From the IMG/VR virus record IMGVR_UViG_3300029305_006521, positions 1-64,000 of that record: 64,000 nt of DNA. One strand, 5' to 3'. Below, in pieces: positions 52,681-57,226 of the stretch. Position 1 is the first letter of the stretch, and each line of letters starts with the position of its first letter. Position numbers and translations under genes: made by a program. The notes under the pieces are model-generated. The model searched no databases. It had not been told where the DNA came from and saw only the letters and a list, made by a program, of their open reading frames with translations. Source of the stretch: a virus (taxonomy: Duplodnaviria > Caudoviricetes).

Positions 52681-52748
52681 TTTAGATGTTCTACATCTAA
52701 ATTTATTTTTCAAAATCCGTTGACTTTTTCCCTATTATTTGGTATACT
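52681..52748 (+). promoter_or_regulatory. Palindrome plus sigma-A promoter (gap 18)
   Basis: TTGACT 52720-17-TATACT 52743. Confidence 0.85.
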
Positions 52749-52818
52749 TAATACAACGAAAGGGGAACAAACCCCAAATAAGGGTAGCGACCTAACCGCT
52801 AAATGAAAGGAAACTAAA

Positions 52819-53190
52819 ATGGAAAACACTGCTAACAAGATGACCGCCCGCAACTTCTACAACGCAATCGCCGCCGGCACTATCAACAGTGAGCTGATGG
52901 AGTACGCCGCCGAAGCTCTCCGTAAGATGGATGAAGCCAATGAAAAGCGCAAGACGAAGATTTCTCCCTCTCAGCTCGAGAATGAGAAGCTCAAGAATGA
53001 AATCGCAGAAAAGATGGTTGGCATGGGTTATACTACTGCCGCGACCATTGCAGAAATGATGGGTATTTCTCCCAACAAGGCAAGCGCACTTTGCCGCATG
53101 ATGGCGGATGAAAAGGATGGTCGTTTCGTAGTCACGGAAGTGAAGAACGAAAAAAAGAACAAGGTTAAGGCGTACAAACTTGCAGACTAA
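52819..53190 (+). CDS. Winged-helix DNA-binding protein (paralogue of 56885-57226)
   Basis: TAATIAEMMGISPNKASALCR HTH followed by a beta-wing ending KAYKLA. Confidence 0.7.
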   Translation: MENTANKMTARNFYNAIAAGTINSELMEYAAEALRKMDEANEKRKTKISPSQLENEKLKNEIAEKMVGMGYTTAATIAEMMGISPNKASALCRMMADEKDGRFVVTEVKNEKKNKVKAYKLAD

Positions 53191-53232
53191 TAAAAGTGGG
53201 GACGGAAGTCCCCATTTTTTTTAACGAAAAAA

Positions 53233-53300
53233 TTTAGATGTTCAACATCTAAAAAATAAATAATTTGACTATTGCAATTTATTCCCCGTTGTGGTATACT
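53233..53300 (+). promoter_or_regulatory. Palindrome plus sigma-A promoter (gap 18)
   Basis: TTGCAA 53272-17-TATACT 53295. Confidence 0.8.
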
Positions 53301-53332
53301 TTAAGTACAGTAAAGGAAAGGAATACCAAACC

Positions 53333-53995
53333 ATGATTGATAAGCGTAAGACCTATTATCTCACCATTGACACCGAAACCGCAAATAATCTTGACAATCC
53401 TTTTGTCTTTGATATTGGCGGAGCTGTGCATGATAAGCATGGAAATGTGGAAGAAACTTTTTCTTTCATTGTCCGTGAAGTTTTTATCGAAATGCCCGAC
53501 CTGATGAAAGAATGTTTTTATCAGTCTAAGCTACCTGCATATCGTGAACAAATCCGGCAGGGCGAACGCATTGTAAAAAATTATTATGAAATCCGCAAGC
53601 ACATCAACAACTTGTGTGAAAAGTATAATATCAAGGCAATTATTGCCCATAATATGCGCTTTGATTATCGTTCCACCACTACCACTCAGCGCTATATTAC
53701 TTACTCAAAGTATCGTTATTTTTTCCCTTGTGATGTTGAATTGTGGGATACTTTGAAAATGGCGCAAGATACAATTTGCAAGCAAAAAACTTATATCCGT
53801 TTTTGTGAAGAAAATGGATATACCAAAAAGAACGGAAGTCCCAGGGCAACCGCCGAAATTCTTTACCGTTATATCAGCGGAAATAATGATTTTGTTGAAA
53901 GTCATACAGGTTTGGAAGATGTTTTGATAGAGAAAGAAATTTTTGCCAAGTGTATGGCACAACATAAAAAAATGAGAAAAAACGTTTGGGAGTAA
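53333..53995 (+). CDS. DEDDh 3'-5' exonuclease
   Basis: IDTET (ExoI), AHNMRFD (ExoII), HTGLED (ExoIII). Confidence 0.85.
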   Translation: MIDKRKTYYLTIDTETANNLDNPFVFDIGGAVHDKHGNVEETFSFIVREVFIEMPDLMKECFYQSKLPAYREQIRQGERIVKNYYEIRKHINNLCEKYNIKAIIAHNMRFDYRSTTTTQRYITYSKYRYFFPCDVELWDTLKMAQDTICKQKTYIRFCEENGYTKKNGSPRATAEILYRYISGNNDFVESHTGLEDVLIEKEIFAKCMAQHKKMRKNVWE

Positions 53996-54019
53996 TCCCA
54001 AACTTTTTTTCAAAGACAA

Positions 54020-54097
54020 TTTAGATGTTCTACATCTAAAAAGTCTTTTAGAAAATTATAAAAAGGGGTTGCAATCTATCATTTATTGTGGTATACT
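54020..54097 (+). promoter_or_regulatory. Palindrome plus sigma-A promoter (gap 28)
   Basis: TTGCAA 54069-17-TATACT 54092. Confidence 0.8.
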
Positions 54098-54129
54098 TAA
54101 TACATCAAAAGGAAAGGAAAATAAACCAA

Positions 54130-54459
54130 ATGAAAAACACCACTGCTAATGTAATCCGTGAACGCTATCTGTCCGCAATCATGTCCTATTTCACCGATGA
54201 AGATATCGGGCGTATTACCTCTAACAGCTTTAACTTCCCCATTGTAGAGGGTGATGAAGAGGGCTGGGTTGAAATCGTGGTGAAAATTCCCAAAGAATCT
54301 GGGGATGAGGGCTACGACAAGAGGGAAGAATATCGCCTGAAACTTGAAGAAAAGGCACAGAAAGCGGAAGAACGGCAGAAAGCCAAGGAAAAGAAAATCG
54401 AGCGGGATAAGAAATTGAGAGAAGAAAAGAAAAAGAAAAAGGAAGAACAGAGCGAATAA
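54130..54459 (+). CDS. Hypothetical protein with highly charged K/E C-terminal helix
   Basis: ATG 54130 after AAGGAAAGG. Confidence 0.75.
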   Translation: MKNTTANVIRERYLSAIMSYFTDEDIGRITSNSFNFPIVEGDEEGWVEIVVKIPKESGDEGYDKREEYRLKLEEKAQKAEERQKAKEKKIERDKKLREEKKKKKEEQSE

Positions 54460-54501
54460 AAAAGAATGGGGAGCAATCCCCATTTTTTTTTGAAAAGACT
54501 T

Positions 54502-54558
54502 TTTAGATGTTCTACATCTAAATTTGTTGTTGACAATTGGCGGCCGACAGTGTATAAT
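54502..54558 (+). promoter_or_regulatory. Palindrome plus sigma-A promoter (gap 7)
   Basis: TTGACA 54530-17-TATAAT 54553. Confidence 0.85.
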
Positions 54559-54581
54559 AGAACTATCGAAAGGAGATAAAA

Positions 54582-54893
54582 ATGGAAAAGAAAGATTTTG
54601 TTTACTTTATACGAATAGGCGAACCCGAAGAAAATCTATATAAGATTGGAACGACCAACAATATGGATAGGCGGATGAAAGAACATCAGCGATATTATAA
54701 AAAAGAAATTACTGTTCTTTGGCAGTCGCCGCCCTATTCAAAATGGACTACATTGCGCGTAGAAGAGAACACCAAAGAAATTTGGAAAAAAACTGAAGGT
54801 TTTGAATATTTGAGGAATGACAGATTTATAATTAATCCCGAAATTAGACAGGTGAAAATTAAGGTTAGAAAAGAATGGGTGATAGACTTTTAA
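54582..54893 (+). CDS. GIY-YIG superfamily (T5orf172-like) nuclease
   Basis: FVYFI...YKIGTT.N..RR..E motif. Confidence 0.75.
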   Translation: MEKKDFVYFIRIGEPEENLYKIGTTNNMDRRMKEHQRYYKKEITVLWQSPPYSKWTTLRVEENTKEIWKKTEGFEYLRNDRFIINPEIRQVKIKVRKEWVIDF

Positions 54894-54918
54894 GGTCTAT
54901 CACTTTTTTTTGAAACAA

Positions 54919-54975
54919 TTTAGATGTTCTACATCTAAATTTATTGTTGACAAACTGCCGCCAATGATGTAAAAT
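54919..54975 (+). promoter_or_regulatory. Palindrome plus sigma-A promoter (gap 7)
   Basis: TTGACA 54947-17-TAAAAT 54970. Confidence 0.85.
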
Positions 54976-55007
54976 GGTATTAAAGAAAAGGAAAGGAAAT
55001 AAAGAAA

Positions 55008-55268
55008 ATGAATGAAATTAAAATGCTTTGGTTGATGTTCATAAGTCTGTGCCACGACACTGGACAGCACATTATTTTTGATGTGCGGATGTGGTGGGAA
55101 TCTCGATTCAACCATAAGAATTTTGGCTATTCTCACACTTTTGGCAAAAATGGTTATTTCATTAATTGCAATAATTGGTTTGTTCCTTGTGATAAGTCTT
55201 TCTCTTATGGTTGCGTAGATACAATGGTTGAATGGCGAAATGGAAACCCTTATTTTGTAAAAAGTTAA
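55008..55268 (+). CDS. Hypothetical aromatic-rich protein
   Basis: 86-aa ORF with SD. Confidence 0.7.
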   Translation: MNEIKMLWLMFISLCHDTGQHIIFDVRMWWESRFNHKNFGYSHTFGKNGYFINCNNWFVPCDKSFSYGCVDTMVEWRNGNPYFVKS

Positions 55269-55290
55269 AAAGGAAAGAGAGGTAAATAAA

Positions 55291-55566
55291 ATGTTCTATC
55301 CCTTCACCGCCCCTATGGCATGTGTCGCTTCCAAAACTTCTGTTGATGAAACCAAATTCGAGACCGAAATCCTTATTAAGGCTTATGCGGAAATTGCTCA
55401 TGTGTGGATTAATCGTGCCGCAAAAAAGGGTTGCTTCAGGACTACTATTTATGTCCCTTACGAAGCCCGCAGGCTTCTCGATGATTTGAAAGAATCTGGT
55501 TTTGAAGTCAAGCATCTTGAGAAAAATTATTATGGTGTTCATTGGGGTGATGGTGCTATTCTCTAA
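55291..55566 (+). CDS. Hypothetical protein (paralogue of 49943-50221)
   Basis: AAKKG...LKESGFEV....VHW. Confidence 0.75.
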   Translation: MFYPFTAPMACVASKTSVDETKFETEILIKAYAEIAHVWINRAAKKGCFRTTIYVPYEARRLLDDLKESGFEVKHLEKNYYGVHWGDGAIL

Positions 55567-55612
55567 ATAATGAAGTATCCCATTGGGATACTTCTTTTTT
55601 TTGAAAAAGTTT

Positions 55613-55669
55613 TTTAGATGTTCTACATCTAAAGAATCATTTGACATTTGCGGCGGTATGTGGTATTAT
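55613..55669 (+). promoter_or_regulatory. Palindrome plus sigma-A promoter (gap 7)
   Basis: TTGACA 55641-17-TATTAT 55664 with TG. Confidence 0.8.
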
Positions 55670-55698
55670 ATACTTACAGAAAGGAAGGAGATAAAAAA

Positions 55699-55860
55699 AT
55701 GAAAGAATACAGGATTTATTTCACCAAGTATTATACCTATTATGTAGAAGCAGAAACCGAAGATGAAGCAATCGAAATTGCGGAAGATGATTTTGAAGCA
55801 GATATGCGTTGTCCCATTGCAGATACAACTTATGACGAAGTAGAGGTAGAAGAAGTATGA
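55699..55860 (+). CDS. Small acidic protein (VEAE.EDEA motif)
   Basis: ATG 55699 after AAGGAG. Confidence 0.7.
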   Translation: MKEYRIYFTKYYTYYVEAETEDEAIEIAEDDFEADMRCPIADTTYDEVEVEEV

Positions 55861-55988
55861 GTTACTGTGAACAGAGCAATTGCGGTTACTACTGGAAAGA
55901 AGAGGGAGAAGACTTCCCTTGTTGCCATTTTGAAGGATGGATTGCACCATGTGAATATGAGGATGATTATGAGGAGGAAGAGGAATGA
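55857..55988 (+). CDS. 43-aa Cys-rich acidic protein (absent from ORF track)
   Basis: MSYCEQSNCGYYWKEEGEDFPCCHF...EEEEE; ATGA overlaps at both ends. Confidence 0.65.
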   Translation: MSYCEQSNCGYYWKEEGEDFPCCHFEGWIAPCEYEDDYEEEEE

Positions 55989-56173
55989 AAATTGCCGAAT
56001 GTCCTTATTGTAAAGAAGAACTTGAAATTGATGAAAGTTATGATATCGATGTTGAAGATATCGATATGGTAATAAATAGAGTAGCAGGACATTGCCCCAA
56101 TTGCAATAAAGAATTTCAATGGGAAGAAATTTATAAATACAGTCATTTTTCTAATTTGGAGGAAATTTGTTAA
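55985..56173 (+). CDS. Zn-ribbon protein
   Basis: CPYC...CPNC. Confidence 0.7.
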   Translation: MKIAECPYCKEELEIDESYDIDVEDIDMVINRVAGHCPNCNKEFQWEEIYKYSHFSNLEEIC

Positions 56174-56355
56174 TGAGATTTATACAAAGTGAAAAAATTG
56201 TTTTGTCTCAGAGTGAAAATAACACTTTCTATGATTTCTTTAATCTCATTACAGGACTTGCAAGAGGTACACGAAATCCTAATACTGAAAGAGCAATTCT
56301 AAAAATTCAGGAACTTGTTAGTGATTTGTGGGAAGGATTGGAAGTAGAAGAATAA
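56173..56355 (+). CDS. Hypothetical protein
   Basis: TAATG coupling, SD GGAGG. Confidence 0.65.
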   Translation: MRFIQSEKIVLSQSENNTFYDFFNLITGLARGTRNPNTERAILKIQELVSDLWEGLEVEE

Positions 56356-56611
56356 AAATTTGGGTCTTAACAGACCCTATTTTTTTACAAAAAAAATTTA
56401 GATGTGTCACATCTAAGTCAAATTTTTTCTTTTTCAAATTTTCTCCACCGGTGGCGTCGCGTCAAATTTTTTCTTTTGTCAAATTTTCAAATGAGCTGCA
56501 AATGAGCTGCGATGTCAAATTTCAGCTGCTAAGCTGCGAATCGCGGCGGTTGTCAAATTTTGTGTGGTTGAGCTGTGAATTGAGCTGTAAAAACTTGACA
56601 GCAGCTGCGAT

Positions 56612-56751
56612 TTGAAAAAACTGCAATTTTTTATTATAATATATATAGAAAGTGAGAGAAAAATAATAAAAAGGAGACACCCCTTTCACAGTGTTCTTTA
56701 CTCACTTTCTGCACGGGATCTTTTGCAAATGAGTTGCGGGTTCGCCCGCAA
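56612..56751 (+). ncRNA. Candidate small non-coding RNA with its own promoter
   Basis: TTGAAA-17-TATAAT; AGAAAGTGAG (56647) pairs with CTCACTTTCT (56701); ends in GCGGG-UUCG-CCCGC; no SD-linked ORF. Confidence 0.5.
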
Positions 56752-56771
56752 AATGTTAATAAAGCGAAAAT

Positions 56772-56800
56772 TTGAAAAACATTCAAAAATGCGCTATAAT
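56772..56800 (+). promoter_or_regulatory. Sigma-A promoter of the second wHTH gene
   Basis: TTGAAA-17-TATAAT followed by ATAGAAAGTGAGA. Confidence 0.75.
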
Positions 56801-56884
56801 ATTTATAGAAAGTGAGAGAGAGATAGTAACTCTCTCCGCAAATAAAAAACTGGGTGGCGACCGACGCTGAAAGGATAATAAACT

Positions 56885-57226
56885 ATGACTAACCGTGAAT
56901 TCTTCGAAGCTATCGTATCTAACACTTCCCTCTCTGCTGAAATGCATGAGCACGCCGAAAAGGAAATCGCTCGTATTGATGCCGCCAATGAGAAGGCCGC
57001 CGCGAAGCGTGCTGAAAAGGCAGCTGAAGATCAGCCCCTGCTCGATGCACTGACTGCTGCGCTGACCACTGAATTCCAGACCGCCTCCGATCTGAAGAGT
57101 GTAATTGAGTGCTCTGTACAGAAGACCTCTTCTCTGCTTCGTAAGCTTGTTAAGGCAAACGTAGCTGTTGATGGCGAAGTAAAGATTCCCAAGAAGGGTA
57201 TGCAGAAGGCTTATAAGCTGGCTTAA
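56885..57226 (+). CDS. Winged-helix DNA-binding protein (paralogue of 52819-53190)
   Basis: TASDL...SVQKTSSLLRKLV HTH, ends KAYKLA; strongly biased codons. Confidence 0.7.
   Translation: MTNREFFEAIVSNTSLSAEMHEHAEKEIARIDAANEKAAAKRAEKAAEDQPLLDALTAALTTEFQTASDLKSVIECSVQKTSSLLRKLVKANVAVDGEVKIPKKGMQKAYKLA

Follow-up and report, generated by a model that had tools for sequence, protein, structure and literature searches.

Positions 1 to 64,000 of IMG/VR virus record IMGVR_UViG_3300029305_006521 (Duplodnaviria; Caudoviricetes), the stretch of DNA that we analyzed and refer to as the window, contain two genes for winged-helix proteins, here called A and B, whose mRNA leaders carry the same short motif just 5′ of the Shine-Dalgarno (SD) sequence. 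We propose, at a probability of about 0.5, that both motifs represent one conserved, portable cis-acting leader RNA module of about 20 nucleotides (nt) that acts via the host machinery rather than via the winged-helix protein. Many phages of the gut and rumen have this small element immediately 5′ of the ribosome binding site of a gene. The predicted core is a hairpin of 4–5 base pairs, S2 (U-NNCG with CGNN-A), whose 3′ arm ends 0–4 nt before an extended SD sequence of the AGAAAGG type. The first two C residues of the hairpin loop would pair with an invariant GGG 5′ of the hairpin to form a second helix, S1, giving an H-type layout with almost no connecting loops. The module is found ahead of unrelated genes and in genomes that lack the protein family, it is positioned at the SD sequence, and its S2 arms pair; from the sequences we infer that it affects translation or mRNA stability, and in which direction.

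The first-pass annotation of the window had described the motif as a mini-pseudoknot preceding two paralogous genes and no other. Both copies read as they had been spelled there, with an outer hairpin pair that is A-U in one copy and G-U in the other, and in both leaders a 5′ hairpin followed by CAAAUAA precedes the motif. The 11-mer that defines it (R at position 5) occurred exactly twice in the window and exactly twice in the 144,568-bp genome, both times on the plus strand, whereas a reversed control pattern gave 0 matches; no reverse-complement copy was present anywhere in that genome. A covariance model (CM) built from relatives identified these two sites as the only significant matches in the genome (35 and 26 bits). 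A third match of 16 bits at genome positions 127634–127661, outside the window, fell inside a GyrA-like open reading frame (ORF) and was judged to be due to chance. Among the 141 SD-led ORFs of the genome, no other was preceded by a comparable GC-rich interleaved structure. The paralogy of the two proteins was borne out (33% identity, E 5e-10), and A and B were the sole genes of the genome that matched the family profile. The earlier statement that the motif stands before no other gene held within this genome but not across phages, in which it also precedes unrelated genes.

Protein-guided searches of viral and metagenome collections yielded about 160 loci, and 148 leaders were classified. The winged-helix family comprises 2,187 clusters at 90% identity (E < 1e-5), its members being unnamed or automatically named 'HTH regulator'. 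The motif described above, class I, was found in 84 of the 148 leaders and was defined by the pattern GGG-U/C, four variable-or-CG letters, N-CC, a loop of 2–7 nt, the complement of the four letters and the SD sequence. Another 21 leaders, class II, have other letters but contain complementary segments in the same order (S1a-S2a-S1b-loop-S2b), while 43 are short and contain no such element. The element was therefore present in about 105 of the 148 homologous leaders, or roughly 70%. A scan with the class II pattern identified a few extra leaders and one unrelated group, and further variants were found in contigs of metagenome-assembled genomes. These contigs point to Bacillota hosts, although binning is weak evidence. 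Genomes with two paralogues often bear one leader of each class (L036/L038, L040/L039 and L064/L020). One CM match, L134:1073, was situated in coding sequence and was attributed to chance.

The pairing of the loop tract RGCG with the downstream CGCU, which the first-pass annotation had proposed, is the best-supported helix of the module and is marked by compensatory changes. The complement of a leader's own 4-nt S2a segment was present downstream in 35 of 46 unique class I leaders, compared with 17% when the segment was tested against the downstream sequence of other leaders. From 26 rows aligned without gaps, RNAalifold predicted a 5-bp S2, three of whose five pairs showed compensatory changes. 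In a CM-guided alignment of 49 distinct rows, 97% of the S2 cells were paired versus 26–60% in slid controls, and the covariation score of this alignment was reached by none of 500 shuffles; the 49-row alignment was fitted to the CM, such that the complement and RNAalifold tests weigh more. MAFFT had misaligned the 3′ arm (ungapped) of leaders with variable loops and was replaced by the same-length subset and the CM-guided alignment. The outer S2 pair was seen as GC, CG, UA, GU and AU, and three of the four variable S2 pairs covaried. We also scanned the whole viral collection with a pattern that fixed the AGAAAG of the SD sequence along with the invariant letters and left the two variable pairs free. 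Both free pairs were complementary in 58 of the 69 matches (14% expected by chance). When AGGAG was substituted for AGAAAG as a negative control, two, one and no pairs were complementary in 5, 30 and 20 of 55 matches, respectively. Because the AGGAG variant paired at the chance level, the module appears to be tied to the long AGAAAG-type SD sequence. From these data we conclude that the S2 hairpin very probably forms.

Several findings separate the module from the protein family. On the protein tree the leader classes were interspersed, with 18 changes on 127 rows, and one tight protein clade held class I together with two class II versions. In the pair L148 and L149 the promoter, 5′ hairpin, linker, SD sequence and coding start were near-identical, and the cassette of about 20 nt alone was exchanged, class I in L148 (95–123) being swapped for class II in L149 (about 1460–1485). 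The two proteins were about 93% identical, with one residue different in the predicted recognition-helix stretch. Among the 69 collection-wide matches, 46 preceded an ORF that matched the family profile, and a few more were cut by locus ends. About 12 matches with both pairs kept and a normal SD–AUG spacing preceded ORFs that the family profile did not match, and profile–profile comparison of four such ORFs with the family gave a probability below 1%. One non-family ORF had a weak, sub-threshold match to phi29-type single-stranded DNA-binding proteins (E 2e-4, below the curated cut-off) and was beside a protein-primed DNA polymerase gene, another was ahead of a protein-primed DNA polymerase gene, and another was just 5′ of an Erf-like annealing protein gene; yet another encodes 97 amino acids and is hydrophobic-looking by eye. 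Some of the non-family carriers thus belong to modules for replication or recombination. One copy of the motif was present in each of three phage genomes rated 100% complete (47.6, 36.8 and 41.1 kb), in which a search at E up to 0.01 detected no gene of the family.

These results bear on the function that had first been suggested, an operator through which the winged-helix protein would autoregulate its own translation in the manner of T4 gene 32. Autoregulation is disfavored because the cassette was swapped between near-identical proteins, because unrelated genes follow the module and because complete genomes carry it without a family gene; the T4 manner also fails for the absence here of an unstructured lattice of more than 40 nt. 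A broader version holds that a trans-acting protein binds the folded module and blocks the 30S subunit at the adjacent SD sequence. Candidates for this protein would be the winged-helix protein itself, a repressor of several early genes that resembles RegA, or an RNA-binding protein of the host. The GGG, the central G-C and C-G pairs and the CC are nearly invariant in class I beyond what pairing needs, the two paralogues are the exclusive carriers in this genome, about 80% of the collection-wide matches precede the winged-helix superfamily, and the position adjoining the SD sequence is that of known protein operators. Ribosomal-protein operators are precedents for such control. T4 gene 32 is another (PMC535899). 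However, the swap and the family-free genomes tell against the encoded protein, the winged-helix fold yielded only generic DNA-binding matches, and a regulator shared by phages as different as the phi29-like and ~145-kb carriers is unlikely, whereas a host factor is possible. Taken together, we consider a translational operator unlikely.

The module was always on the sense strand, 5′ of the SD sequence and 3′ of either a promoter or an upstream stop codon. Of 43 unique class I leaders, 29 had the end of S2b 15–19 nt 5′ of the start codon, and AGAA directly followed S2b in about 20. The SD sequence of gene A was predicted to be mostly unpaired, with a mean probability of being unpaired of about 0.8 for 52806–52812 (the SD sequence shifted by one nt). 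In the preferred reading, a portable module that works through the host, its most likely effect would be to expose a strong SD sequence and to insulate it from what lies 5′ of it. In addition, the module may offer a helix end beside the SD/anti-SD duplex, thereby promoting efficient 30S loading, and may shield the mRNA near the ribosome binding site (RBS) from 5′-to-3′ decay, in which case the host translation and decay machinery would be involved. We tentatively suggest a more specific and rather doubtful form, in which the module is a shape-dependent natural RBS insulator and enhancer of about 20 nt. Its helix end would coincide with the point that the 3′ tail of 16S rRNA reaches on an extended AGAAAGG-type SD sequence, stacking on the SD/anti-SD duplex and/or halting a 5′-to-3′ exonuclease just ahead of the RBS, and Bacillota phages would use it as an early-gene cassette in at least two interchangeable versions.

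Two further observations concern the region between the module and the start codon. In leader B a predicted alternative longer fold within 56869–56905 would pair the SD sequence with the conserved Glu-Phe-Phe codons (AAGGAU with AUUCUU); the pairing looks unconserved, as judged by eye from a few relatives with other codons. An extra short GNRA-type hairpin (GAAA or AAA-type loop) was seen between the module and the SD sequence in some class I leaders, namely in L011, L033, L050, L086 and L099 and on the minus strand of L158 (2328–2355). Where this hairpin is inserted, its end rather than that of the module adjoins the SD sequence, and in one relative a plain hairpin occupies the place of the module.

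A ligand-sensing riboswitch in the size class of preQ1-I, with control over the neighboring SD sequence, would also be compatible with the compact pseudoknot-like fold beside that sequence and with the handful of nucleotides that are conserved yet unpaired (G, U, A9 and a loop A). Rfam 15 contained no match at the gathering score in the window, and relaxing the threshold to E = 10 gave none to the leaders. Moreover, the SD sequence is predicted not to be sequestered, at least in leader A, class II swaps nearly all conserved letters within near-identical leaders, and the downstream genes have no common metabolic theme, all of which make a riboswitch very improbable. We give still less credence to a site that acts at the DNA level, either as an operator for the winged-helix protein, whose fold is typical of DNA binders, or as a minus-strand terminator, for which a terminator scan flagged the S2 hairpin on that strand. 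Two interleaved inverted repeats with a loop that varies from 2 to 7 nt are unlike a dimer operator, the sense strand contains G-U pairs, the element is confined in its orientation and to the promoter-to-SD interval, and three complete carrier genomes have no family gene. The terminator version was rejected, as CCC and then an interrupted T-run follow the hairpin on the minus strand and no transcription unit of that strand runs into it.

Several points weigh against the reading of the module as a portable, host-dependent pseudoknot. Roughly 30% of the family leaders lack it, and its concentration ahead of the winged-helix superfamily, together with its exclusiveness to that family in this genome, means that it may have a family-linked regulatory role. 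The gap to the SD core also varies, being 0, 1 or 3–4 nt. As to the structure, the GG and CC never varied in class I (47–48 of 49 rows scorable). S1 therefore shows no compensatory change in that class, and the conserved GGG and CC may be recognized by a factor instead of forming a helix. A scan that left S1 free, whose listed matches were mostly noise, found among them no compensated S1 in class I; the real sites had GGG with ACC (23 unique) or UCC (1). As written, the connecting loops L1 and L2 are 0 nt long. A classical coaxial H-type pseudoknot needs at least one nucleotide in the loop that spans the deep groove, so not all proposed pairs are formable together in a standard coaxial pseudoknot. 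Finally, each helix by itself is weak (−1 to −6 kcal/mol).

A simpler structure that fits either function consists of the S2 hairpin alone, with the GGG and the loop CC as single-stranded contacts and the S1 complementarity a coincidence. The invariance of S1 in class I and the steric difficulty of the full pseudoknot are in keeping with it, as are the frequent mismatches of the flanking candidate pairs (6 of 48 rows for U4-N9, 19 of 47 for G1-X12), the relative with a plain hairpin, and a cross-test between class II leaders that discriminated only weakly (82% of own S1 pairs versus 60% of cross pairs). On the other hand, in class II and the variants the letters 5′ of the hairpin were complementary to the first loop letters in many versions, whether GC-only, mixed or all-A/U, the last in L215. 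Class II contained at least eight different S1 letter combinations, each complementary and each directly beside S2a, and at least four consecutive S1 pairs flanked S2a in 11 of 20 leaders (55%) versus 2.9% in slid controls. On an ungapped 7-row alignment, the rows of which were chosen for fitting one frame, both helices covaried, two S1 pairs among them, and 95% of the cells paired versus 30–56% in slid controls. With the zero-length loops, the fold would be feasible only if the junction pair opened. The junction pair was G-U or a mismatch in most rows and is for that reason probably open, and its opening would result in one-nucleotide loops. The hairpin alone is thus a possible but somewhat doubtful structure, and we think that the interleaved S1 probably forms together with the hairpin.

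The covariation check over homologues that the first-pass annotation had called for gave a divided answer, since S2 covaried and the class II versions of S1 were complementary, whereas the GG and CC of class I were invariant. Likewise, part of its H-type pseudoknot stood, namely the RGCG/CGCU helix and an interleaved layout that recurs in class II; the GG/CC pairs of its GGU/ACC helix were untouched by variation in class I. The pseudoknot topology is plausible, although not established by sequence comparison.

Table. Features of leaders A and B, with four small ORFs unrelated to the winged-helix family that follow the module in other loci (prefix L). Unprefixed positions are those of the window.
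Feature	Positions	Strand	Description
Promoter, gene A	52720–52748	+	TTGACT, 17 nt, TATACT, TG extension; 10/12 consensus matches; predicted start near 52755
5′ hairpin, leader A	52762–52775	+	GGGG/CCCC, 6-nt loop; in minimum free energy (MFE) and centroid fold
A-rich linker, leader A	52776–52781	+	AAAUAA, directly 3′ of 5′ hairpin
Putative mini-pseudoknot module, copy A	52782–52801	+	Seen in sequence; S2 in MFE fold, −5.0 kcal/mol; CM match 26.2 bits; S2 covariation in relatives
Copy A, S1a	52782–52784	+	GGG
Copy A, S2a	52785–52789	+	UAGCG
Copy A, A	52790	+	
Copy A, S1b	52791–52793	+	CC(U); loop to 52796
Copy A, S2b	52797–52801	+	CGCUA
SD, gene A	52805–52811	+	GAAAGGA
Start codon, gene A	52819–52821	+	AUG
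Gene A	52819–53190	+	123 amino acids: N-terminal helix, long helix, winged helix-turn-helix; family profile E 1e-36
Promoter, gene B	56772–56800	+	TTGAAA, 17 nt, TATAAT; 11/12 consensus matches; predicted start near 56807
5′ hairpin, leader B	56812–56839	+	GAGAGAG arm, loop ends GUAAC; MFE fold; same hairpin in close relatives
A-rich linker, leader B	56840–56851	+	Directly 3′ of 5′ hairpin
Putative mini-pseudoknot module, copy B	56852–56869	+	Seen in sequence; CM match 35 bits; S2 in fold
Copy B, S1a	56852–56854	+	GGG
Copy B, S2a	56855–56859	+	UGGCG
Copy B, A	56860	+	
Copy B, S1b	56861–56862	+	CC; followed by loop GA
Copy B, S2b	56865–56869	+	CGCU(G); abuts SD directly, one nt in common
SD, gene B	56869–56875	+	GAAAGGA
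Start codon, gene B	56885–56887	+	AUG
Gene B	56885–57226	+	113-amino-acid winged-helix protein
Unrelated small ORF	L271:4125–4490		Behind module
Unrelated small ORF	L278:380–822		Behind module
Unrelated small ORF	L281:6629–7138		Behind module
Unrelated small ORF	L223:2073–2398		Behind module

Genes A and B are each monocistronic, with their own sigma-70-like promoter and their own terminator, and a consensus scan placed the promoters about 60–85 nt 5′ of the AUG codons. The near-consensus promoters and SD sequences suggest that the winged-helix protein may be abundant. A confident AlphaFold2 model of protein B had a predicted local distance difference test (pLDDT) score of 92.9 and consisted of a helix at residues 3–12, a helix at 18–59 and a winged helix-turn-helix at 64–112. 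Structure and sequence searches retrieved generic winged-helix regulators only (PadR, MarR, TFE-alpha and DnaD-N). Pfam and PHROGs contained no significant family for either protein, Foldseek and a sequence profile search against the PDB gave only generic winged-helix matches, and no relative of protein B was present among the INPHARED phage records.

The fold of the whole of leader B had an MFE z score of −2.4, and an equivalent 5′ hairpin and A-rich linker were present in the leaders of most relatives. In the 5′ hairpin the end of the loop, GUAAC or GGAAC, is kept while the stem letters vary (window 56812–56839; L004, L108, L120, L138, L148 and L149 near 1415–1450), and the linker 3′ of it is a conserved A-rich sequence (AAAUAAAAA). 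The entire leader may be one structured unit. Near the SD sequence of gene A, a four-codon mini-ORF (AUG AAA GGA AAC UAA, 52803–52817) overlaps the SD sequence and stops 1 nt short of the AUG. Eleven of the 43 unique class I leaders had an AUG directly 5′ of GAAAGGAG, which was out of frame in some. At the DNA level, near-identical 21-bp palindromes of the TTTAGATGTT-N-AACATCTAAA type at 52681–52701 and 53233–53253 sit 19–20 bp 5′ of two −35 boxes, that of gene A and that of the next cassette.

The module is a conserved leader RNA that is uncatalogued in Rfam and belongs to a known kind, the structured leader elements at the RBS. With it, the leader elements that operate at bacterial RBSs gain a structured RNA of very small size. 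As it is compact and portable and exists in interchangeable versions, it could readily be tested by compensatory mutagenesis, and if it boosts or insulates translation it might provide a short genetic part for Bacillota. Our results also correct the attractive but unsupported analogy with autoregulation by T4 gene 32. A literature search found no description of an SD-abutting pseudoknot enhancer, and we compared the module with the systems that come closest.

The T4 gene 32 operator is a pseudoknot of about 28 nt followed by more than 40 nt of an unstructured UUAAA/UAAA lattice that holds the RBS, along which gp32 spreads cooperatively (PMC535899). Both systems have a small pseudoknot-type fold 5′ of the RBS in a phage mRNA leader of a gene for a small nucleic-acid-binding protein. 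In contrast, the fold described here ends 0–4 nt from the SD core, both in the window and in most relatives, with no lattice in between, the protein is a winged helix and not a cooperative single-stranded DNA binder, and the module also serves unrelated genes and phages that lack the family protein.

In the rep leaders of IncI-alpha, IncB and IncL/M plasmids, two reports describe a pseudoknot (the repZ/repA activator) that joins a GGCG-type loop to a CGCC-type tract immediately 5′ of the SD sequence and activates translation (PMC4705826, PMC8053102). According to one of them, this long-range pairing opens an inhibitory structure over a weak SD sequence and a GUG start codon, is triggered by translation of a leader peptide and is blocked by an antisense RNA (PMC4705826). 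The GGCG-type loop that pairs beside an SD sequence left unsequestered by the pseudoknot is common to both. However, the pairing in our leaders is local, both genes have a strong SD sequence and an AUG start codon, and the SD sequence of gene A is predicted to be free, with no inhibitory structure over a weak SD. A promoter scan found no minus-strand promoter-like sites in leader regions A and B, unlike the situation of the rep antisense RNA.

The E. coli rpsO/S15 and alpha operon/S4 pseudoknot operators, and mRNAs that dock on the platform of the 30S subunit, have a compact fold at about −15 to −40 from the AUG. The module likewise is a compact fold at about −15 to −40, where the 30S platform takes structured leaders. 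Each of those operators is bound by one ribosomal protein and has its RBS partly in the fold, whereas the SD sequence here is outside it. The module also differs from the 5′-terminal stabilizers of Bacillota mRNAs in not being within a few nt of the predicted transcript 5′ end. It starts about 27 nt (A) and 45 nt (B) 3′ of the predicted transcription starts, and the separate 5′ hairpin holds the position of such a stabilizer. The module might nevertheless act once the transcript has been processed.

Access of RNase Y and RNase J1 to the hbs mRNA of B. subtilis is governed by structure and by initiating ribosomes (PMC5737220). The hbs leader is long, has a different fold and has not been described as containing an SD-abutting pseudoknot. 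Nevertheless, it resembles our leaders in being a structured leader with a strong SD sequence on the mRNA of a small, abundant DNA-binding protein, abundance being putative in our case. By analogy, hbs may be taken as a precedent for the logic by which structure plus an initiating ribosome would protect an mRNA from decay.

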